A stretch of DNA of 32,277 nt from a virus (taxonomy: Duplodnaviria; Caudoviricetes): IMG/VR virus record IMGVR_UViG_3300024355_000623, positions 1 to 32,277 of that record. The stretch is one strand, 5' to 3'. A program made the translations under genes and the position numbers. Shown piece by piece: positions 10,663 through 32,277 of the stretch. The notes below the pieces were generated by a model. The model made no database searches, was not told the DNA's origin, and saw nothing but the letters and a program-made list of their open reading frames with translations. How positions within the stretch are numbered: position 1 is the stretch's first letter; each line of letters starts with the position of its first letter.

Positions 10663-11781
10663 CTAGTTTTGCAGCCAGTTGTACAGGTCGGATTGCGCCG
10701 GGATCCTTGAGGATTTCCCCTCCGTCACCGGCACGCCCGAGCGAGGCTTGGAAGCCTTGCTGGCCTGGGCCAGCCTGCGGGCATGGCGTTCGATGGAGAC
10801 CTTTCCAAGTCCCATCAGGTCGGTGAGCAGGTTTTTAGAAAGGGGTAATTGCAGGGATTCGCACAGCCTGCGGATCCAGGCTTCCTTCTTCATGCGCTGG
10901 ATCTCTTCCTGAAGTTGGGCCACGCCCGGATTTTTGTGAACCTGGCGGGATTCCTTGACTTCCTTGTCATCCTCGTCCTTATCCTCTTCTTCCTCGTAGG
11001 AGTCGTCTTCCTCCTTGGTGACGTCGCTGGCGCTGCCTTCCTCGGCCTCGGAGGTTTCCTCCTCTTCCTGGGTAAAGTCGCCTTCCTCCATGGCTTCCTT
11101 GACCAGCTTGACGATGGCTTGCGCCTTTTCCTCGTCGGACAATTCGCCTTCCTTGAGGGCATCCAGAACCTTGGAGGCCAGGGAGTCTTTTTCCTCGTCC
11201 CCCTCCTCCTCGTTTTCGACCTTGTCATGGTCTTCCATGGATTTCTTTTCCTCTTCCTCACGAAGCTTGCGCTTGATGCCCTTGTTCATTTTTCCCTCCG
11301 ATAAACTTGAAGTGGTTGCCGGGTCGGCAACCAGGTCCACATGTCGAACTTCCGTCACGCGATGCACCACGAATGTATCGCCGTCTTTTTCACCCTCGCC
11401 CTGTGCATTGTGGGAAAGGCCGAATGCCTCTGGCATCCGTTCTGCCGCCTCGGTCACCCTGGAGGCCATGGGATGGCTCTTGAGGTAAACCATGTCCCCG
11501 TACAACCCCTTGCCCTCGACGTAGCGGATGTTTTGCAGCTTCCCGAAACGGTCGTAGGCGGAGCGTTGTCCGGCCGGGTCATCCTCGGGGTGGTCGATGT
11601 TGACCTTGATGCCCTCGTAAAGTTTCTTGGCGGATTTGAGGGCCTCGGGTAAATATTTCCTGCCGTTGTCACTGTCAAAGCCAATGATTTTCACGCCGTA
11701 GATGATGCCGGCGGATTTGTCCACGCGGAGCGGATTGGCCCCGAGGGATGCTTCCAGTGCGAACAGACGATTTAACCTCAT
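10663..11781 (-). CDS. Prohead protease-scaffold fusion
   Basis: N-terminal NGRKY...NIDHP...FGLSHNA...VDLVADPAT protease motifs followed by a very acidic coiled-coil region; start likely ATG 11781. Confidence 0.85.
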   Translation of the reverse strand: MRLNRLFALEASLGANPLRVDKSAGIIYGVKIIGFDSDNGRKYLPEALKSAKKLYEGIKVNIDHPEDDPAGQRSAYDRFGKLQNIRYVEGKGLYGDMVYLKSHPMASRVTEAAERMPEAFGLSHNAQGEGEKDGDTFVVHRVTEVRHVDLVADPATTSSLSEGKMNKGIKRKLREEEEKKSMEDHDKVENEEEGDEEKDSLASKVLDALKEGELSDEEKAQAIVKLVKEAMEEGDFTQEEEETSEAEEGSASDVTKEEDDSYEEEEDKDEDDKEVKESRQVHKNPGVAQLQEEIQRMKKEAWIRRLCESLQLPLSKNLLTDLMGLGKVSIERHARRLAQASKASKPRSGVPVTEGKSSRIPAQSDLYNWLQN

Positions 11782-11817
11782 AAGCCGAGTATCAGAAATG
11801 ACCCGGCAAAGTGTCAA
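11782..11817 (-). promoter_or_regulatory. Sigma70-like promoter, probably producing a leaderless mRNA
   Basis: TTGACA (11817-11812), 18 nt, GATACT (11793-11788), 6 nt, ATG; no SD sequence. Confidence 0.55.
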
Positions 11818-11844: not shown

Positions 11845-12405
11845 TTACTTTTTCTTTTTGGATTTTGGCGGGTCGGGAGGGAATCCATCCACATAACCGG
11901 CGGCCCTAAGGGTTTTGCGGAACTCTTTGGGAAGGTGATCCCATTGATCCTTCTCCAGGATCGATCTTGTGCGAATTAAAAGGTTCACATAATCGGGTGG
12001 ATAAACCGGGTCCGGGTTAATGCCGTCCCGCCATCCCAGGGCTTCCAGCCGATCCTGGGATGCCTGGGATAACTGGCACCACCCTACCAGACCCATATGC
12101 GGGCACTGGTCCGATGGAGAGATTCCATCCACATAACCGGCTGCCTTGAGAGCAACCCTGAACTCCTCGGGAAGGTGATCCCATTGATCCTTCTCCATGG
12201 ACGCACCGGATTGGGTCAGGCGTTCAATGTAGTCAGGCGGATAAACCGGGTCTGGGCGAATGCCATCGCGCCAGCCCAAAGCCGACAACCGCTCCCTTGC
12301 CTCTTGAGGAATCAAATCCCAGGTTGCTTTTCCCATATGCGGGGAGGTGCAAATCATGTCGCCTTCCTCCGCAACAAATCTGTTTTTTTTGGGTTTCCTT
12401 GTCAT
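11845..12405 (-). CDS. Tandem-repeat protein, putative immunity protein for the MuF-ART toxin
   Basis: ATGA overlap with the MuF stop; two 80-aa repeats, each with two W-x2-[LI]-x7-L-x-A-x-G-[WY]-x-DG sub-repeats. Confidence 0.65.
   Translation of the reverse strand: MTRKPKKNRFVAEEGDMICTSPHMGKATWDLIPQEARERLSALGWRDGIRPDPVYPPDYIERLTQSGASMEKDQWDHLPEEFRVALKAAGYVDGISPSDQCPHMGLVGWCQLSQASQDRLEALGWRDGINPDPVYPPDYVNLLIRTRSILEKDQWDHLPKEFRKTLRAAGYVDGFPPDPPKSKKKK
11881..12340. repeat. Imperfect 240-bp tandem duplication within the repeat gene
   Basis: ccatccacataaccgg...gggaaggtgatcccattgatccttctcca...ggataaaccgggtc...cccatatgcggg recur at an offset of 240. Confidence 0.9.
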
Positions 12406-14249
12406 AAAAACGCTTCCCATGTTCCGTCAGGAAATTGAACCCCGGTAACTTTTAATTTCATTCCTCTTTGCAACAAAATTTCCTCTTCGCGGATATTGTT
12501 GTGTCCAGAGTTAATCCCTTTTTGCAAGCGCATTAATGCCGGAATGTAAATGCCTTTGACAGGGCTCACAATAGTTATTCTATACACCTTTTTGGATTTT
12601 CCTCCGAATTTACTGGCTACTTTTCGAGAAAGGGATGTGCTCATGAATCCCTTGTCTTTATCCGCCGGATTTACGCTGGCTGGAACAGATCTGAACAGCA
12701 CTGTTCCGAGAGGTATTTCCATGGCGTGTTTTTTGTGAACTTTATCCAGTGCGTGTACTACCCTCAAGACAGCAGGGTTGTTTTTTTTATGACGAACCAC
12801 ATCATTCATGATTTCATGGTAGGGGCCGATGTACTTGCGAAGCGGCGGGGTTCCCTTAGAAGTGGATTTCAGCAACTGGTCCGATAATTTACTACTGTAA
12901 ACAAAGTGCTGTGCGGCCGTTTTTACCGTGAGGGGCGGTTTGATTGCAGGGGTTTGGTTCCATCCTGGCTGGGGTAAAGAGGGCGGCACTGGCTGGGGCG
13001 GTGCTGGGAAATCCGGTGGTTTCTGTCCTCCTGCAGAGGGCGGAAGATAGCCATAGTTAGCCACCTGGCGTGTCAGTTCCTTCCTCTTGGAAATCAGCGC
13101 GGCGAATTTGTCCAGGCGCTGCTTGCGCTCGTCCGGAGTCTCCCGGTAAAGCTCGCGTTCGTCCAGCAGCCTGCCGGTGTCCGGCTCGACAAAATGCCCC
13201 CAGGTGATCTTGTGGTTGGGAAGAAGGGCGCGCATCATATTCATGCGCCTGGCTCCCACCACGCGTTTCTGGTCGTGTTCCGGGGCGCGCTCGAACCAGT
13301 CCGTGTAGACCGCCGGATTGGGAATGAGTTCATTCCGGGCGTTGGTGAATACCGCCTTGGCGGCAGGATCCTCCTCGATGTGCTTCTGGACTTCCAGCAC
13401 TGGCGTAAGCCAGCAGCGGCAGTTATGCGCAACGGTGCCGTCTTCCTCCAGGGGAGGCCTGGGCATCTTTTCGAGGCCAAGCTGTCCTGGTCCAGGTTTC
13501 TTGTAGTAGATGGTTCCGGATCGCGCGGCATGGTGGGGTCGTACCCTGGCATCCATGGTGGCGTGGATCTGGTAGCCAACCACCATGTCCCCCAGTTGCT
13601 CGTAGGCCTGCATCCGTGTCTCATGGGCGATGCGCATGGACTCATTGCGGGCGACCCGCCGGGCAGTGCTGGAGATACCCTGGACAAAAGGCCGGATCTG
13701 TCGGGATAATTCGGCGGGCGTGGCACCCGCGCTGAATCCGCTTGTCACCAGAGACGCCAGTTGTTCGGGGCTGGCCCTGCGAGTCTGCTGCTCCAGTCTT
13801 CCATCCCAGCTCATGCCATTGGTGGTTCCACGGACAATGGAGGCGACCTTGTCCTGGGGAATCTTCTTGAAGAGCGCATCCTGGATCTGGCTGCGCTCCT
13901 TGTTCTTGTTTTCCAGAACCGGCTTACGCTCAGTAAGGAGACCCAAGTACGCCACTGGAATGGTTTTCCCCAGCACGGTGGCCGCATCCTGGTAGGAGCT
14001 GGTGACCATGTCTTCCAGTCCGTCCGCCAGGCCGGAGCGGGCGTGATGCATCACTTGGGTCAGCAGGTGGTACAGTCGGTAGCGCTTGATCGTCAGGCTA
14101 TCCTTGGACTTCAGGACGCTCTGGATCTGTACCCAGAGGGTTTCCAGCTTGCGATCTATACGCAATGTCACGTTATCGGCCACGGAAAGCTGTTTTTCCT
14201 GGTGGAGATTGAACTTGGCCGCAAGGGTGGAATTGAGCGCGGAGCGCAT
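12402..14249 (-). CDS. MuF (SPP1 gp7-like) minor head protein with a C-terminal ADP-ribosyltransferase toxin domain
   Basis: MuF motifs ARRVARNE, ATMDARVRPHH, HNCRC; Pro-rich linker; C-terminal VLFR...GFMSTSLS...REEEILL (R-STS-ExE). Confidence 0.85.
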   Translation of the reverse strand: MRSALNSTLAAKFNLHQEKQLSVADNVTLRIDRKLETLWVQIQSVLKSKDSLTIKRYRLYHLLTQVMHHARSGLADGLEDMVTSSYQDAATVLGKTIPVAYLGLLTERKPVLENKNKERSQIQDALFKKIPQDKVASIVRGTTNGMSWDGRLEQQTRRASPEQLASLVTSGFSAGATPAELSRQIRPFVQGISSTARRVARNESMRIAHETRMQAYEQLGDMVVGYQIHATMDARVRPHHAARSGTIYYKKPGPGQLGLEKMPRPPLEEDGTVAHNCRCWLTPVLEVQKHIEEDPAAKAVFTNARNELIPNPAVYTDWFERAPEHDQKRVVGARRMNMMRALLPNHKITWGHFVEPDTGRLLDERELYRETPDERKQRLDKFAALISKRKELTRQVANYGYLPPSAGGQKPPDFPAPPQPVPPSLPQPGWNQTPAIKPPLTVKTAAQHFVYSSKLSDQLLKSTSKGTPPLRKYIGPYHEIMNDVVRHKKNNPAVLRVVHALDKVHKKHAMEIPLGTVLFRSVPASVNPADKDKGFMSTSLSRKVASKFGGKSKKVYRITIVSPVKGIYIPALMRLQKGINSGHNNIREEEILLQRGMKLKVTGVQFPDGTWEAFL

Positions 14250-24594: not shown

Positions 24595-25453
24595 GGGCGT
24601 TTTCCTCCTCAGGCTGGTATTCCGCGCTGGCTGACTCCAGGCTCGCCACCACCTCTGCCGCCTGCAATCGGGTCAACTGTTTGGGCGAATGGATCCCGTA
24701 GCGGCTTTTGATCGCCTCCCCCCACTTTTTCTTTTCCGCCGTGCTATACTCCATCACCCGCAACAAGTGGTTCATAAGCGCCAACTGCGCCTCACTCACC
24801 ATCTCCTCCGGAGCTGCCCCAGAAGCCGTATCCGGGGCTGGGAACCCCTCCAGGTGAGCCTCAGGCACTGTCGTAGATGCCGACTTCGCCGTGGTAATTT
24901 CCGCCTGCTCCATCTCCTCCTGGGTGTACAGGCCGGAAAGATCGGCAGGGAACGCCTTGCGCAGGGCGGCCGCTTCGGCACACTTGGCCAGCATGACGTG
25001 CGGCATGCGATCCCACAAAGGACCCGGGAAAGAAGGCCGATATTCGCTCATCAGAGCCGAGGCCGTGAAGGAACAGCAGACCCCCTGCACCAGCTTGCCC
25101 ACCGTCACCGTCGCCCGCATCACCCGCCCATGGTCGTCGTATTGGTAGACAGCGTCGGAATTCCCGGCGTAACGGCCGGTGCGGTCAGCAATCAAACGGT
25201 ACCCGTCAATCCCGGTCTGGATCACCATCCGGGCCCCTCCAGGCGCCTTTTTGTCCGGGCGCCTGATCGCGTAAATCTGCCGGGAAAAGGGATCCAATCC
25301 CGTGCGCTCGCAGACTCCGATGAACAGGGCCAGCTCCGCATCCGTGCACTCCCTGGCAATCTGCGTCTTGATCAGGTCAATCTGGCTGGCATTGAACACC
25401 AGCTTCTCCGCCACTGCCCCGGCACCAGTGGTCGTTATTACATTTGCGGACAT
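24587..25453 (-). CDS. bet: Phage single-strand annealing recombinase Bet (RecT/Red-beta family)
   Basis: GLDPFSRQIYAI...QTGIDGYRLIADRTG...WDRMPHVMLAKCAEAAALRKAFP..LSGLYTQEEM. Confidence 0.92.
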   Translation of the reverse strand: MSANVITTTGAGAVAEKLVFNASQIDLIKTQIARECTDAELALFIGVCERTGLDPFSRQIYAIRRPDKKAPGGARMVIQTGIDGYRLIADRTGRYAGNSDAVYQYDDHGRVMRATVTVGKLVQGVCCSFTASALMSEYRPSFPGPLWDRMPHVMLAKCAEAAALRKAFPADLSGLYTQEEMEQAEITTAKSASTTVPEAHLEGFPAPDTASGAAPEEMVSEAQLALMNHLLRVMEYSTAEKKKWGEAIKSRYGIHSPKQLTRLQAAEVVASLESASAEYQPEEENAHV

Positions 25454-25659
25454 TGCATTGCTCCTTGTAGTAGTTGCTCCCTGAAAATCCCCACTTCCTT
25501 CGGGCCATCGAACACCAGGCTCACCTGGTTGCGGTCATACGACTGCACCCCCACCCACACACTGTGATCTCCCAACTGGATGAGGACCCGGTCCCCCAGC
25601 TTCACGCTCAGCACCAGCCCCTTGAGTTTCCGGCGATTCATGTCAGCCTGTCGTTTCAT
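25438..25659 (-). CDS. csrA: CsrA/RsmA-like RNA-binding regulator (copy 1)
   Basis: LVLSVKLGDRVLI...V..V...NQVSLVFDGPKEVGIFREQL aligns by eye to the CsrA consensus; GGAGG RBS. Confidence 0.75.
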   Translation of the reverse strand: MKRQADMNRRKLKGLVLSVKLGDRVLIQLGDHSVWVGVQSYDRNQVSLVFDGPKEVGIFREQLLQGAMQCPQM

Positions 25660-26139: not shown

Positions 26140-26280
26140 GATAATCAAACTCTAATCTATATTAATGTGTTAACAAGTTATTTTAAATACTATTTTTAAT
26201 ATTAATTAGTTAATTTGTAACCTATAATGTGTAATATTAACTGTATAAAGGATTTGCGTCTTGCTAAAAAAAAGGGAGAA
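26140..26280. promoter_or_regulatory. Divergent AT-rich promoter/operator region
   Basis: Very AT-rich; TATAAT at 26223-26228; ATATTAA at 26159, 26199 and 26234. Confidence 0.6.
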
Positions 26281-26286
26281 ATTAAA

Positions 26287-26484
26287 ATGAGTACTATGGC
26301 GCGACCGAAAAAACCAAATCACGAAAGCATTCAAGTCGGTTGGCGGATTGACGGGAAAGATAAGCATCTGCTTGATCTTCTGGACGATTTTGCCAGCCAG
26401 CACCGCTATTCCAGAAACACTGTGGTTACCATTGCGGTCGAAAAGTTTTTGACCGAATGGAAGAAGCAACACAAGCAGTCCTAA
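26287..26484 (+). CDS. Ribbon-helix-helix (Arc/CopG-like) regulator
   Basis: MARPKK...IQVGWRID...LLDLLDDFASQHRYSRNTVVTIAVEKFL; GGGAG RBS. Confidence 0.75.
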   Translation: MSTMARPKKPNHESIQVGWRIDGKDKHLLDLLDDFASQHRYSRNTVVTIAVEKFLTEWKKQHKQS

Positions 26485-26498
26485 ATCAGGGCGTCGAA

Positions 26499-26672
26499 CT
26501 AGCATTTTCGTGATTCCTCCCGAATCAGGGTGGAGTCAGTCCGGAGTTCCGGTAGCCCGCCCTCCCGCTCAATGGTCAACGTCACCTGTTTTCCCCGCAG
26601 AAACACCCGCACCAACACATCCCCGATCCATACCGACTGACCGCTTTTTCTGGTCACCATCGCCCCTGCCAT
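26499..26672 (-). CDS. CsrA-like protein (copy 2; 57 aa, absent from ORF track)
   Basis: Manual translation MAGAMVTRKSGQSVWIGDVLVRVFLRGKQVTLTIEREGGLPELRTDSTLIREESRKC; TRKxGxSxxIGD, GxQV and IREE match CsrA. Confidence 0.62.
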   Translation of the reverse strand: MAGAMVTRKSGQSVWIGDVLVRVFLRGKQVTLTIEREGGLPELRTDSTLIREESRKC

Positions 26673-26689
26673 GCCTTGCCCCCCGTCTT

Positions 26690-26960
26690 AGGACAACCCG
26701 GGAGCCTGGAACTGCTCCAGTCCCCACCTCTACCGCCCCCGGGCCACCCAGGCGCACGCCGGGGACTTGAACCCCGGACCCGGATCCCACCATCCAGGCT
26801 GCCCCCGCAGACAACAAGCCTGCCTGGCACCTGCGACCCCATCACGACGAACCCCATAAGCTCCCGGTCCACCGCGATGTTCCTGTGGTGTTTTGGGGCG
26901 CATGGCCATTTCCTGTCACCATCCGCCCCTGGCACATCCTGCGCCAAAGCACCATCCATG
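26690..26960 (-). ncRNA. Candidate structured GGA-repeat RNA (CsrB/RsmZ-like sRNA or leader)
   Basis: 11 GGA motifs including CAGGATG, 2x ACAGGA, ATGGATG and GCGGATG; hairpin GGCGC-AGGAT-GTGCC; further stems and a tRNA T-arm-like hairpin. Confidence 0.4.
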
Positions 26961-26965
26961 CACCC

Positions 26966-27021
26966 ACTGTAACCCGGATCCAAAAAGTGCCAATACTATA
27001 GCGTTGGAATAGCTATAGTAT
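26966..27021 (-). promoter_or_regulatory. Putative promoter plus inverted-repeat operator
   Basis: TTGGCA (26993-26988), 16 nt, TACAGT (26971-26966); ATACTATAGC-N9-GCTATAGTAT inverted repeat at 26993-27021. Confidence 0.45.
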
Positions 27022-27195
27022 AGCTTTAGGCCACCCCAAGAGATCCGCAATAGGTGTGTTAAAAGCTTGTTTTACAGGTGTTTTCGGCGATACGGATGGC
27101 GATTTCGGATGCAAATACCGGATGAGACAGGGAGAATTATGGGGCGGAAAGGCGGGGCAGATATTATGTTTGCCGTTTGCTGGCAGGGATCGCTT

Positions 27196-27690
27196 TTAAT
27201 TGATGATTTTGGACACAAGCAGATGCACGTCGGTCATGGGCGGGTGGTTCCGCCCTTGGGCATTGCCGACCGCTAAAGCAAATTGCTCCAGGGAAATCCC
27301 CTGGTGGGAAAGGTTCAGGTTTCCCAATACCTTGAAGACGATGGCATCCGCTGAGGAAATCAGGAACTCCTCCCTGGACTCCACCAGGAACGCTAGGGAT
27401 TCCGCTTCTCCGGGGTCCAGTCTTTCCAGGTAATTGCGGTCAAACTGTTTCTGAAATGCCAGCAGGCTGGAAACAGGCATATCAAAAATCCGCAGGCGTT
27501 TGCCGTTGATATCGGCGGTCAATTCAATCGGGATCTGCTCCTGGCAGTCCAGGTAAAAGATTGCTTCCTGAAAGGCCACCACACTGGAAAGGTGGACCTC
27601 CCATTTGGCCAGGATGGAATGCCACAGGCCGGCTTCAAAAAGGTGGATGACGATGTTGGCGTCAAGAATGAGCAATTTCGACTTCGGCAT
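27196..27690 (-). CDS. PIN-domain (VapC-like) nuclease
   Basis: LILDANIVI...E...LDPGEAESLAF...SSAD acidic PIN motifs; overlaps the upstream XRE-peptidase gene. Confidence 0.8.
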   Translation of the reverse strand: MPKSKLLILDANIVIHLFEAGLWHSILAKWEVHLSSVVAFQEAIFYLDCQEQIPIELTADINGKRLRIFDMPVSSLLAFQKQFDRNYLERLDPGEAESLAFLVESREEFLISSADAIVFKVLGNLNLSHQGISLEQFALAVGNAQGRNHPPMTDVHLLVSKIIN

Positions 27691-28771
27691 TTTCCTGGGT
27701 GTCCTGCTCGACAACCTGCATGGCCTCGCGCCTGGAAACGCCCAGGTATTCCGCGTATTTGCCGGCGGCCATCAAACCCCGGCGCAGGGCCTGGCGTGCC
27801 AGGGCGCAAAAGCGGGCGGGTCTTTCCGGCGGTTTTTCCTGATCCCGCTTTTCCAAAAATCCCATGCCGTCGCGGCAAAGTTCAATGTTGCGCTGGGAGT
27901 TTTCCCGGGAAATGTTGTAAAGGAATCCTATCTGCCACAGCATGGCCTCCACGGAGACATCAAACTGCCTGGCAATTTCAAACAGTGAATCCACCTGGAT
28001 TTTCCCTGAATCCGCCAGATGCCTGTCCACGGTGATCCGCAGGATTTCCATGGGCATCAGCAGGTTTCTGGCGAAGCAGGTCGCCAGCTTTTCCTCGGTC
28101 TCGGAGGCTTCCACCACATTTTCAGGGGCATTGGAACGGTACATTTTCCAGGTCAGCAGGTGGAAGAGTTCGTGGGCCAGGTCAAAATTCCTTCGCCAGC
28201 GGGTATTGCGGCTGTTTAGGAGGATGGCCGCGCCAAAGGAACCGCTCAGGGTGCAGGCCGCGCTTCCCGCGGGTTCGAAATCCTTGTGGAAAACCTTGAC
28301 CTTGCACACCTCCTCCAGGACGCGCAACAGGATCTGGCCCGGGCGGTCGCCCAGACCAAGGTCGTTGCGAACGCGCAAGGCCAGGGCTTCCGCCTCCGCG
28401 TAATGAAACCGTTCCGGATTGCCATTGGCGAAGGGGATTTGCAGGGGGTGGTTTTGGTCACACCAGGTTTCCAGATTGTGGTATTGCGTGCCCAGGGTCA
28501 CCAATTCCAATTCCAGCTTCAGGGCTTGGGAGGATTCCGGCTTCTGGCGCCAAAGGACCACTTCCGGGCAGTCCTCTCCCTCTTCCAGGAAAAAACTCCA
28601 GGGCCGTTGGTAGGTGTCGGCCAGCACCTTCAACTGGGGAATCCTTGGCTCCCTTTTCCCGTTTTCAAATTCGGACAGGGTGGATTCGCCAATCCCGGTG
28701 GCGGTGGCGACTGCGCCCAGGGTGTACCCCAGTGCTGTCCTGGCTTTTTTCAATCGTTCTGGAAAACCCAT
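27662..28771 (-). CDS. XRE HTH fused to an ImmA/IrrE (peptidase M78, DUF955) metallopeptidase
   Basis: RLKKAR...STLSEFENGKREP HTH; RRNFDLAHELFHLL HExxH; E..A..FARNLLMP. Confidence 0.92.
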   Translation of the reverse strand: MGFPERLKKARTALGYTLGAVATATGIGESTLSEFENGKREPRIPQLKVLADTYQRPWSFFLEEGEDCPEVVLWRQKPESSQALKLELELVTLGTQYHNLETWCDQNHPLQIPFANGNPERFHYAEAEALALRVRNDLGLGDRPGQILLRVLEEVCKVKVFHKDFEPAGSAACTLSGSFGAAILLNSRNTRWRRNFDLAHELFHLLTWKMYRSNAPENVVEASETEEKLATCFARNLLMPMEILRITVDRHLADSGKIQVDSLFEIARQFDVSVEAMLWQIGFLYNISRENSQRNIELCRDGMGFLEKRDQEKPPERPARFCALARQALRRGLMAAGKYAEYLGVSRREAMQVVEQDTQENAEVEIAHS

Positions 28772-29225: not shown

Positions 29226-30026
29226 ATGAATGATTTTACAGTGCTTGTAAATGATTTTTCCGAAAAACTAAGTGCAGACATTATTTTTTATCAAGACTAC
29301 ATTCATGCCAAGGGTGTAAAACAAGTAAGTCAGATTACTAAAAACACTTCCAAGAAAAATGTGTTGTTGATCATAAAGACTTTGGGTGGCGATCCAAATT
29401 CAGCATTCAAAATCGCCAGACTTCTCCAGGCAAAGTATTCCAAGTTTATGGTGCTGGTCTTTGATGTTTGCAAAAGTGCTGGGACTTTGCTGGCATTAGG
29501 ATCAGACGAAATCATCATGAGTGAGATTGGCGAGTTTGGCCCCTTGGATATTCAATTGCATTACGCAGATGAAATTCGGACGAGTTCTGGCCTGAACATT
29601 ACCGAGGCTCTAGATACTTTTAAAATAGAAACAAAATCCTTGTTTTGGGAATTATTGCAAGAGGCCACTCGGGGAACGAAAATTTCCATCAAAACTGCTG
29701 CCGAAATTGCTTCAAAATTAGCACTTGGATTTTACAACCCTATCGTTGGGCAAATAGATCCAGTAACAATGGGTGAAACAAATCGTACGATAAAAATTGC
29801 CATGGCATACGGGGAACGATTAATTGAAGATCCTGCGCGTGGAAATAGCACCTACGCCCAAATTGTCAGAATGATTCAAGATTATCCCAACCATGAATTT
29901 GTTATTGACTTTAAGGAATCTTTAAAATTATTCAAATGCGTTCGAAAGTGGAATGACCTGGAAGAAAAATTGGTTGAAAACATGATACAATGCCATGGTG
30001 ACAACCCTGTTATTGTCAAATATTAA
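29226..30026 (+). CDS. ClpP-class serine protease (SDH_sah/SppA-like)
   Basis: TLGGDPNSAFKIAR...KSAGTLLALGSDEIIM...FGPLDIQ...YPNHEFVID; AT-rich. Confidence 0.85.
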   Translation: MNDFTVLVNDFSEKLSADIIFYQDYIHAKGVKQVSQITKNTSKKNVLLIIKTLGGDPNSAFKIARLLQAKYSKFMVLVFDVCKSAGTLLALGSDEIIMSEIGEFGPLDIQLHYADEIRTSSGLNITEALDTFKIETKSLFWELLQEATRGTKISIKTAAEIASKLALGFYNPIVGQIDPVTMGETNRTIKIAMAYGERLIEDPARGNSTYAQIVRMIQDYPNHEFVIDFKESLKLFKCVRKWNDLEEKLVENMIQCHGDNPVIVKY

Positions 30027-30846: not shown

Positions 30847-30894
30847 TTGATGCGTTTTCGGACTTTTCCATTTCACACCCAAGGGAGTAACACC

Positions 30895-32277
30895 ATGGCT
30901 AGCGTAGCAAGCGATCCGGACGGCAAGAAGCGCGTCCTGTTTGTGGCCCAGGATGGAAGACGGAAAACCATCCGCCTGGGCAAGTTCACCCTGCAGGATG
31001 CCCGGGCCGTGGCCCGCTACATCCAGGGACTGGTGGATGCTCGGATTGGCGGGGTCACTCCAGCACGGGATGTGGTCTCCTGGCTGGCGGGAGTGGGGCC
31101 CAAACTGTGGGAGAAAATGGTCCGTGCCGGTCTGGTGGAGGCAAGGCCGGGGGATGTGGCCTCCGTCACCCTGAAGCATCACTTGGACAATTACATGGCC
31201 AGGAGGGGCGATGTGAAGCCTGGCACCCAGATACACTGGGGCCAGACCTGCAACTGCCTGCTAACCTACTTCGGGCCGCTGCGTTACCTGGCGAACATCA
31301 CCGTGGGAGATGCGGAGGACTGGCAGCGCTGGCTGCGTACCGGGGAAGGCCGCAAGATGCGTTATGAAGGCCGGGAAGTCGGGGAGGGGCTGGCACCTGC
31401 GACCGTGGGCAAGCGCACCCGCAACGCCATCCAGTTTTTCAAGGATGCCGTGAAGCGGAACCTGATCCCCAAAAACCCCTTTGAGGGGCTGAAGTGCGAC
31501 AAGGGGACCAACAAGCAGCGCATCTTCTTCGTCACCCGGGAAATGGCTTCCAGGGTGCTGGATGCCTTGCCAGATTCCGAATGGCGCCTGATCTTCGCCC
31601 TGAGCCGGTTTGGGGGCTTGCGCTGTCCCAGTGAAACCCTGAGTCTTCGTTGGCAGGACATCAACTGGTCAACCGGGAAAATGCTGGTGCATGTGCCCAA
31701 GCTGGAGCGCATAGCGGGGAAAGGGACTAGGCTGGTGCCCATCTTCCCGGAGCTGAAGCCCTACCTTAACGCGGTCTGGGAGGAGGCGAAGCCAGGGTCC
31801 CCATTTGTGATTCGCCGCTATCGCTCCAGAAATGCCAACTTGCGAACCCAGTTGCTGCGTTACCTGGCCCTGGCGGGGCTTCCGAAATGGCCAAAACCCT
31901 TCACCAACCTCAGGGCAAGCATGGCGACCGAACTGGCGGCTAGGTTCCCGGCCCATGTGGAGGCGGAGTGGGTGGGCCATTCCGAGAAGATTGCCCGGGA
32001 GCACTACCTGCAGGTGACCGAGGCTGATTTTGCCAGAGCCCTGGCAGGGGACGAAAAAGCGGCGCAGAATCCGGCGCAGCAAAATGAGGAACCTGGCGGA
32101 AATGAGGGGAACAGTGTTTTGGAAATTGCCAAAAATCGACAAAAAAACGACGATTTTCGGGGTAATTCTGGCGGGTGCGATGGGATGCAGGGTAAGAGAG
32201 TGGGCGTACTTGGATTCGAACCAAGGACCTCAGCTTTATCAGAGCTGCGCTCTAGCCAACTGAGCTATACGCCCTAA
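30895..32277 (+). CDS. int: Tyrosine recombinase (phage integrase)
   Basis: GGLRCPSE, VPK, NLRAS, WVGHS and HY catalytic set; N-terminal RKTIRLGK arm-binding-like region; GGGAG RBS before ATG 30895. Confidence 0.93.
   Translation: MASVASDPDGKKRVLFVAQDGRRKTIRLGKFTLQDARAVARYIQGLVDARIGGVTPARDVVSWLAGVGPKLWEKMVRAGLVEARPGDVASVTLKHHLDNYMARRGDVKPGTQIHWGQTCNCLLTYFGPLRYLANITVGDAEDWQRWLRTGEGRKMRYEGREVGEGLAPATVGKRTRNAIQFFKDAVKRNLIPKNPFEGLKCDKGTNKQRIFFVTREMASRVLDALPDSEWRLIFALSRFGGLRCPSETLSLRWQDINWSTGKMLVHVPKLERIAGKGTRLVPIFPELKPYLNAVWEEAKPGSPFVIRRYRSRNANLRTQLLRYLALAGLPKWPKPFTNLRASMATELAARFPAHVEAEWVGHSEKIAREHYLQVTEADFARALAGDEKAAQNPAQQNEEPGGNEGNSVLEIAKNRQKNDDFRGNSGGCDGMQGKRVGVLGFEPRTSALSELRSSQLSYTP
32201..32274 (-). 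tRNA. trnI: tRNA-Ile (anticodon GAT), CCA not encoded
   Basis: GGGCGTATAGCTCAGTTGGCTAGAGCGCAGCTCTGATAAAGCTGAGGTCCTTGGTTCGAATCCAAGTACGCCCA folds into a canonical cloverleaf. Confidence 0.96.

Follow-up and report, generated by a model that had tools for sequence, protein, structure and literature searches.

A predicted leader RNA, folded and non-coding, whose 5' end resembles CsrB, beside a csrA-derived gene in a planctomycete prophage

The regulatory RNA CsrB carries repeats of the form CAGGA(U/A/C)G, with CAGGA as the core (PMC7652899), and 18 nt is given as the optimal site distance for one CsrA dimer (PMC4894983). Genes of the CsrA family are also found on mobile elements, with reports of CsrA homologues on 30 of 2517 phage genomes and of CsrT of Legionella on a mobile element (PMC7366521), as well as of a plasmid-encoded protein, RsmQ, which binds the host RNAs RsmY/Z and heterodimerises (PMC9928087). 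In the excerpts consulted, an RNA antagonist carried on the element itself is undescribed for CsrT, RsmQ or phage csrA (PMC7366521, PMC9928087). The csrA-tldR loci are reported not to be phage-encoded (bioRxiv 10.1101/2025.07.22.666180), CsrA is described as common in Planctomycetota (PMC13443453), and FliW has been suggested for Planctomycetes (PMC4682653). A preliminary description of the locus considered here knew of no described prophage module of a CsrA pair plus sponge and no planctomycete Csr sRNA, and this agrees with a literature search of limited depth that yielded neither a phage-encoded Csr decoy RNA nor a planctomycete Csr sRNA. The analysis below supports a leader that is folded and non-coding, that has a short CsrB-like domain at its 5' end and that adjoins a csrA-derived gene. 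That this stretch is a repressor-controlled leader binding a CsrA-family protein is a tentative reading, to which we give somewhat less than an even chance.

All positions refer to the window, which is the whole of the record IMGVR_UViG_3300024355_000623 (32,277 nt). This 32-kb record is a provirus, estimated to be 75% complete, and contains terminase, portal, tail, RecT and integrase genes. The integrase matches Rhodopirellula and has matches at E<=1e-60 in 17 of 251 Planctomycetota genomes; of the 16 genomes searched among these 17, three contain a tRNA-Ile 96% identical to the terminal one of the prophage. Because of the integrase matches and the tRNA-Ile identity, the host is assigned, on sequence grounds, to the planctomycetes. 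Reading along the minus strand, one meets first an HTH-IrrE gene and a PIN-like gene (together 27196-28771), next 520 nt in which no gene is credible, and then csrA2. A small repressor-like gene on the plus strand faces csrA2, and the early operon, to which csrA1 and recT belong, is found past an AT-rich gap. The PIN label comes from reading of the sequence, the C-terminus of this gene looks cut short, and searches for a family match and for relatives both came up empty. Elsewhere in the window, the integrase frame (30847-32277, plus strand) crosses the opposite-strand tRNA-Ile gene (32201-32274, minus strand) and stops at the last base of the window. The gene at 12402-14249 on the minus strand joins a MuF-like head protein to an ADP-ribosyltransferase domain, the layout of phage MuF polymorphic toxins, and a ClpP-like SDH-type serine protease gene (29226-30026, plus strand), which is probably cargo, lies in AT-rich DNA near the integrase.

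A sigma-70-like promoter match, TTGGCA-16-TACAGT, is present on the minus strand at 26966..26993, where a putative promoter had been proposed; it agrees with 9 of 12 consensus positions and is not significant alone, with 2 such sites in 1.9 kb versus 1.3 expected. Two strandless candidate operators lie beside it, a perfect 13-nt palindrome (27012..27024, 0 mismatches) and, 22 nt away, a copy with 2 mismatches (26990..27002) that overlaps the -35 hexamer. At up to 3 mismatches this palindrome has 7 matches in the window versus 3.1 expected, the best two being these neighbours. In addition, a 20-nt repeat at 27055..27074 (minus strand), a candidate shared regulator site, is identical at 16 of 20 positions to 26166-26185, which lies upstream of the csrA1-containing early operon; both minus-strand csrA units are thus preceded by the repeat. 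Since the palindromes flank or overlap the promoter match and the 20-nt repeat is shared with the upstream region of the early operon, these sites suggest repressor control of the leader. In a simple scan, no terminator-like site was found between 26960 and csrA2 or between csrA2 and the convergent repressor-like gene, and the simplest transcription unit would therefore consist of promoter, leader and csrA2. Contigs from the RNA runs X15 and X16 span the 5' domain of the leader, none from X17 or X18 does so among the matches listed, and contigs of both X17 and X18 end at 26307; as these contigs carry neither strand nor level and may stem from DNA, they neither show nor exclude a distinct RNA.

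The stretch of about 290 nt between the promoter match and csrA2 is non-coding and folded. Judged by a 3-periodic model, for which 15 of the phage's GC-rich genes served as the training set, all three minus-strand frames of the leader lack 3-base periodicity and score as shuffles do (-5.5, -7.7 and -7.5), whereas true genes average +6.5; csrA2 scores in frame (+1.2 versus -13.7 and -11.0), as do the neighbouring genes. The doubt originally expressed about the overlapping open reading frames is thus borne out. It is highly improbable, and largely refuted, that the stretch codes for a small protein coupled to csrA2 (ORF 26959-26654, 101 aa) and that its GGAs are codon junctions. Such a protein would fit the open frame, which begins at the first ATG past the promoter and closes with a stop codon that overlaps the start of csrA2, and 7 of the 11 GGAs have the codon phase that predominates in the phage's genes (255 of 411). 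However, the coding score of this ORF is no higher than that of shuffles, the ORF has no Pfam or PHROG match, and the frame is broken in a near strain (run X16), in which a one-base deletion turns the 101-codon ORF into one of 129 codons reaching deep into csrA2.

The region was chosen after its motifs had been noticed, and the GGA motifs listed at that time occur at the positions then given. The count of 11 GGAs between promoter and csrA2 is also correct, while the range 26690..26993 holds 12, because one falls in the promoter spacer. The suspected overall enrichment of GGA, on the other hand, proved marginal in 3000 shuffles (11 versus 7.48 expected, p 0.048). At least 11 GGAs are found in 22% of 304-nt minus-strand windows, and the GC-rich genes of this phage contain 8.6 GGAs per 300 nt. 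With marginal shuffles and similar numbers in windows and genes, the whole-region count was dropped as evidence. The three CAGGAs of the 5' domain, one of which fits the full CAGGA(U/A/C)G, are not equalled in any of 3000 shuffles; in the real background, 0.74% of 125-nt minus-strand windows carry three CAGGAs (3 clusters) and 1.0% carry four CA(N)GGAs (4 clusters). Shuffles therefore understate the background, and windows of real sequence reach similar motif numbers more often. This bears on the explanation nearly as likely as a decoy leader, which also falls short of an even chance, namely that the GGA cluster arose by chance in a G-rich, structured, CsrA-independent leader before a decaying csrA. 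The minus strand is 43% G and about 1% of its windows show such clusters, both of which speak for chance.

The predicted fold distinguishes the two ends of the leader. The first 125 nt (26836..26960, minus strand) are predicted to form a GGA-loop domain of three hairpins. Hairpin 1 (26930..26946, minus strand) presents CAGGAUG and includes the stem-loop GGCGC-AGGAT-GTGCC proposed earlier at 26945-26931, with a pair probability of 0.91. Hairpin 2 (26895..26929, minus strand) has ACAGGAAA in its loop at pair probabilities of 0.99-1.00, and the proposed stem ATGGT...GCCAT around ACAGGAA is likewise predicted (0.99). Hairpin 3 (26840..26879, minus strand; 14 pairs, pair probability 0.98) has a loop with GGGAG, which is not an A(N)GGA. 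Other parts of the earlier folding proposal do not hold: the hairpin GGGACT-GGAGC-AGTTCC offers no free GGA, the first G being paired in the local fold, and is missing from the full-length fold, GCGGATG is predicted to be paired, and so is GTGGA in the full-length fold. Of the seven GGAs in the domain, those at 26957, 26939, 26913, 26883 and 26864 are predicted to be unpaired (spacing 18, 26, 30 and 19 nt), and the remaining two, at 26924 and 26870, to be paired. The 18 nt between the first two unpaired sites equal the distance given as optimal for one CsrA dimer.

Four of these seven GGAs belong to A(N)GGA motifs, and all four are predicted to be unpaired, compared with 0.40 expected and none of 300 shuffles reaching this number. 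The folding energy of the domain is better than that of shuffles (p 0.003), and the 301-nt leader as a whole folds at z -3.29, with none of 100 shuffles as stable. When 6432 windows on the two strands of the prophage were scanned, 7 were found to have four unpaired sites; two of these are the 5' domain and the other five lie in the ORF 10663-11817. Outside long ORFs, the 5' domain is therefore alone in the 32 kb in reaching this number, and it adjoins a csrA-like gene. One coding window folds equally well (z -2.4 versus -2.0). The complete predicted exposure of its A(N)GGAs, its stable folding, this singular position and the operator-like palindromes over the promoter match all argue against a chance cluster.

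The 3' part of the leader (26673..26835, minus strand; 163 nt, GC-rich) contains neither an A(N)GGA nor an unpaired GGA and is predicted to form a long rod pairing with the csrA2 start region. It includes a match to the variable loop and T-arm of tRNA (26760..26780, minus strand; 18.7 bits, E 0.001), aligned to positions 45-65 of 73 in a model built from 12 planctomycete-type tRNAs. A T-arm with a TTCRANY loop is present. A separate tRNA-likeness value of p 0.027 is biased because its tRNA set was picked by the T-loop pattern. A decayed tRNA-Leu and a hand-fitted full cloverleaf were both considered and are unsupported. It was also considered whether the tRNA-like fragment acts as a processing signal, at which the transcript is cut and the 5' GGA domain freed as a stand-alone sponge sRNA. 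A T-arm with an intact loop, a weak match to the mascRNA model at 26813-26753 (21.4 bits, E 0.27, gathering cut-off 42.5) and a boundary near 26835 that parts the GGA domain from the remainder are consistent with such processing, which is nevertheless very doubtful, given that a complete cloverleaf reaches -22.5 versus -40.3 kcal/mol for the best fold, that the T-arm is formed with a probability of 0.22 in the full leader and that the tRNA match is so short. The fragment also fits the chance explanation, in which the leader was perhaps patched together from decayed pieces, namely a tRNA 3' fragment and an imperfect copy, 37 nt long, of the start of csrA2: 26945-26909 resembles 26682-26647 at the csrA2 start (minus strand) as an imperfect direct repeat (p 0.011, post hoc).

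The csrA2 gene (26499..26672, minus strand) is a degenerate CsrA-derived ORF of 57 aa, or 53 aa from the ATG at 26660. Its earlier designation as a second csrA copy is right as to descent (hhalign E 8e-5) and too generous as to preservation, the match to Pfam PF02599 amounting to 15.2 bits (E 0.021) where the cut-off is 27 bits. The DNA is 80% identical over 50 nt to a planctomycete csrA. The protein retains arginines aligned to R6 and R44, the latter invariant in 16 aligned sequences, and shows substitutions around R44 and in the first strand (AGAM in place of LVL, LPELRTDS in place of VPVHRREV). CsrA is an intertwined dimer with five strands and a helix, of which the N-terminal strand and strand 5 are hydrophobic. 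A monomer model of csrA2 (pLDDT 72.5), to be read with the intertwined dimer fold of CsrA in mind, has three central strands, no helix and residues 46-57 below 50, and its matches among solved structures include no CsrA. The degeneracy and the variable C-terminus of csrA2 are in line with chance. R44 is described as essential for RNA binding (PMC7366521), and it is also kept in csrA1 (25438..25659, minus strand), a divergent CsrA whose gene immediately precedes recT in the early operon and in which the N-terminal arginine has become V. This protein exceeds the PF02599 cut-off (33 versus 27 bits), and its best solved-structure matches are CsrA. The start region of recT (25453-25490, minus strand), inside the 3' end of csrA1, contains two ANGGAs about 16 nt apart, possibly a CsrA target or merely a ribosome-binding site. 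About half of the natural CsrA homologues tested were inactive in one assay (PMC13443453), and the divergent phage copies may therefore not bind GGA.

The small repressor-like gene (26299..26484, plus strand; start at 26290 or 26299) is convergent with csrA2 and 14 nt from it, and the ORF 26227-26484 matches the PHROG 876 transcriptional repressor family (E 4.4e-5). Phage RNAs such as C4 of P1 and the CI RNA of P4 act by base pairing or attenuation. The transcript could likewise be an immunity-control RNA, acting by base pairing or attenuation or as an antisense run-on that lowers expression of the convergent repressor gene. The operator-like sites, the long structured leader with its 3' rod covering the csrA2 start, the close convergent gene with no terminator-like site in between and the threefold occurrence of GGATGGTG would all suit this explanation. 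It is unlikely, in that none of the 7 matches to Rfam models at E<=10 is to a C4-type family and a search for long complementary targets came up empty.

Under the reading of a CsrA-binding leader, the stretch is likely transcribed as a repressor-controlled leader of the degenerate csrA2, and its first 125 nt, with four or five GGA loops predicted to be exposed, would be bound by a CsrA-family protein in the form of one or two dimers. Once the promoter is released, the leader may act in trans as a small decoy, by analogy with the flaA and fim leaders. As its partner, CsrA2 would be less probable than the better-preserved CsrA1 or any of the numerous paralogues of the host. The csrA2 start region is without GGA; binding would not directly block the start there, which makes direct autoregulation by occlusion unlikely. 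Of the sRNA or long leader originally proposed to titrate CsrA, the leader, with its CsrB-like 5' domain and its non-coding, folded character, is thus supported by computation, and a 300-nt sRNA with 11 sites is not. An RNA of the CsrB/RsmZ type is at odds with the four to five exposed sites, with the missing terminator-like site and with the lack of Csr/Rsm models among the Rfam matches at the same threshold. The self-contained Csr circuit is the least supported part of the preliminary description, as csrA2 is degenerate, its start lacks GGA and the module does not recur at the other phage csrA loci examined. A bolder version is a two-pronged anti-CsrA operon in which a single repressor-controlled transcript provides both a GGA decoy RNA, released by cutting at the tRNA-like arm, and a degenerate CsrA that poisons CsrA dimers of host or phage. 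It is quite improbable; if true, the prophage would reset Csr control of its planctomycete host at induction.

Homologues of the leader were sought in several collections. Outside its own population, 301 genomes of the family and 401 of the phylum (overlapping samples) gave only 22-50-nt matches, and no homologue was found in 50,697 phage records. The 120 loci that pattern searches picked out in viral contigs likewise included none, and they are without csrA. A diverged homologue was absent from the viral and metagenome contigs searched, and a metagenome scan (26 of 64 parts) returned two identical copies. With csrA2 as the query, a single close relative (P0001, 89-91%) was returned, together with P0004, a tandem CsrA of 111 aa with two CsrA-like units. 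Viral contigs were also scanned with csrA2, the repressor, RecT, an alignment of csrA1 and the PIN-like gene; the loci obtained were all spurious or distant, and PF02599 was found in none of their 17 records. Scans with 17-nt and triple-GGA patterns gave unrelated matches; in a pattern scan over 35 of 64 parts, 84 of 103 unique matches lay in frames of at least 150 codons. Triple CAGGA occurs in 287 of 301 planctomycete genomes, where the listed matches look like coding DNA. The element is a single-locus candidate, known from the sequence of one population.

A total of 341 csrA relatives were found in viral contigs, at canonical phage csrA loci. GGA was examined upstream of the best 80 of these, 79 of which were used (one had no upstream DNA), and no excess was found (490 versus 473 expected; 5 of 79 at p<0.05). 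No second separate csrA occurs within 3 kb at these loci, and the 9 of 6330 non-coding-like windows at other loci that reach four unpaired sites are all A/G-rich and weakly folded. With no GGA excess, no second csrA and no stably folded site windows, the combination of leader and csrA does not recur at phage csrA genes, and its absence from the 79 other loci is again what chance would predict.

Planctomycete chromosomes offer a further comparison. Among 13 mraZ-family spacers taken from 9 planctomycete genomes, with two duplicate loci excluded, CANGGANG occurs 34 times versus 1.5 expected and is present in 12 of the 13, while CAGGANG occurs once versus 1.3 expected. In these spacers (L299-L313), which lie behind both kinds of mraZ-family gene, CANGGANG stands mostly before a hairpin and U-run, and one spacer (L313) has 6 copies. 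The mraZ spacers are stronger CsrA-decoy candidates than the phage element. The phage 5' domain has one CANGGANG (p 0.17) and three CAGGAs, and no alignment of the leader to the mraZ spacers was significant, which indicates that the domain neither stems from these spacers nor mimics them closely. CsrA-like genes were found in all 301 genomes of the planctomycete family placed near the host by tRNA-Ile (3-18 matches each). Together with the excess of CANGGANG, these many genes raise the odds that planctomycete CsrAs have RNA ligands. The setting is a phylum with many CsrA paralogues, and FliW, although suggested for this phylum (PMC4682653), was found in none of the five genomes searched in the family of genome G174. 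If the 5' domain binds CsrA, phages would manipulate Csr control by RNA as well as by protein.

Among known systems, the phage leader resembles CsrB/CsrC of E. coli and RsmX/Y/Z of Pseudomonas in having several predicted exposed A(N)GGAs and CAGGA cores. CsrB and CsrC were fetched as controls, and their first 125 nt contain 5 (versus 1.16 expected) and 7 (versus 2.17 expected) unpaired A(N)GGAs, respectively, so that the site density of the phage 5' domain is near that of the beginning of CsrB. Over their full lengths, however, CsrB has 19 and CsrC 13 A(N)GGAs, compared with 4 in the phage leader, which, unlike the Csr/Rsm sRNAs, has no terminator-like site, runs into a gene, belongs to a planctomycete prophage and has no Rfam match to them. 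Control would differ as well, with a candidate repressor for the phage leader and activation by BarA-UvrY/Gac for the Csr/Rsm sRNAs. The 5'UTR of Campylobacter flaA and the leader of Salmonella fimAICDHF (PMC4894983) are similar in that GGA hairpins are predicted in a 5' leader, and the fim leader also in that its sites are distant from the start codon; the present leader differs from both in being phage-borne, in preceding a csrA-derived gene and in having a transcript deduced here from sequence. The planctomycete mraZ RNAs share the phylum and candidate CsrA ligands in hairpins with the phage leader, and differ in their CANGGANG loops and in that most end in a hairpin and U-run. As with CsrT, RsmQ and phage csrA, a csrA-family gene is found on a mobile element, which is known and, for phages, also common in the viral contigs searched here, whereas two divergent copies about 0.8 kb apart, one of them degenerate, set this prophage apart from those cases. 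Phage csrA genes being known already, what may be new here is a phage-borne candidate Csr decoy leader.
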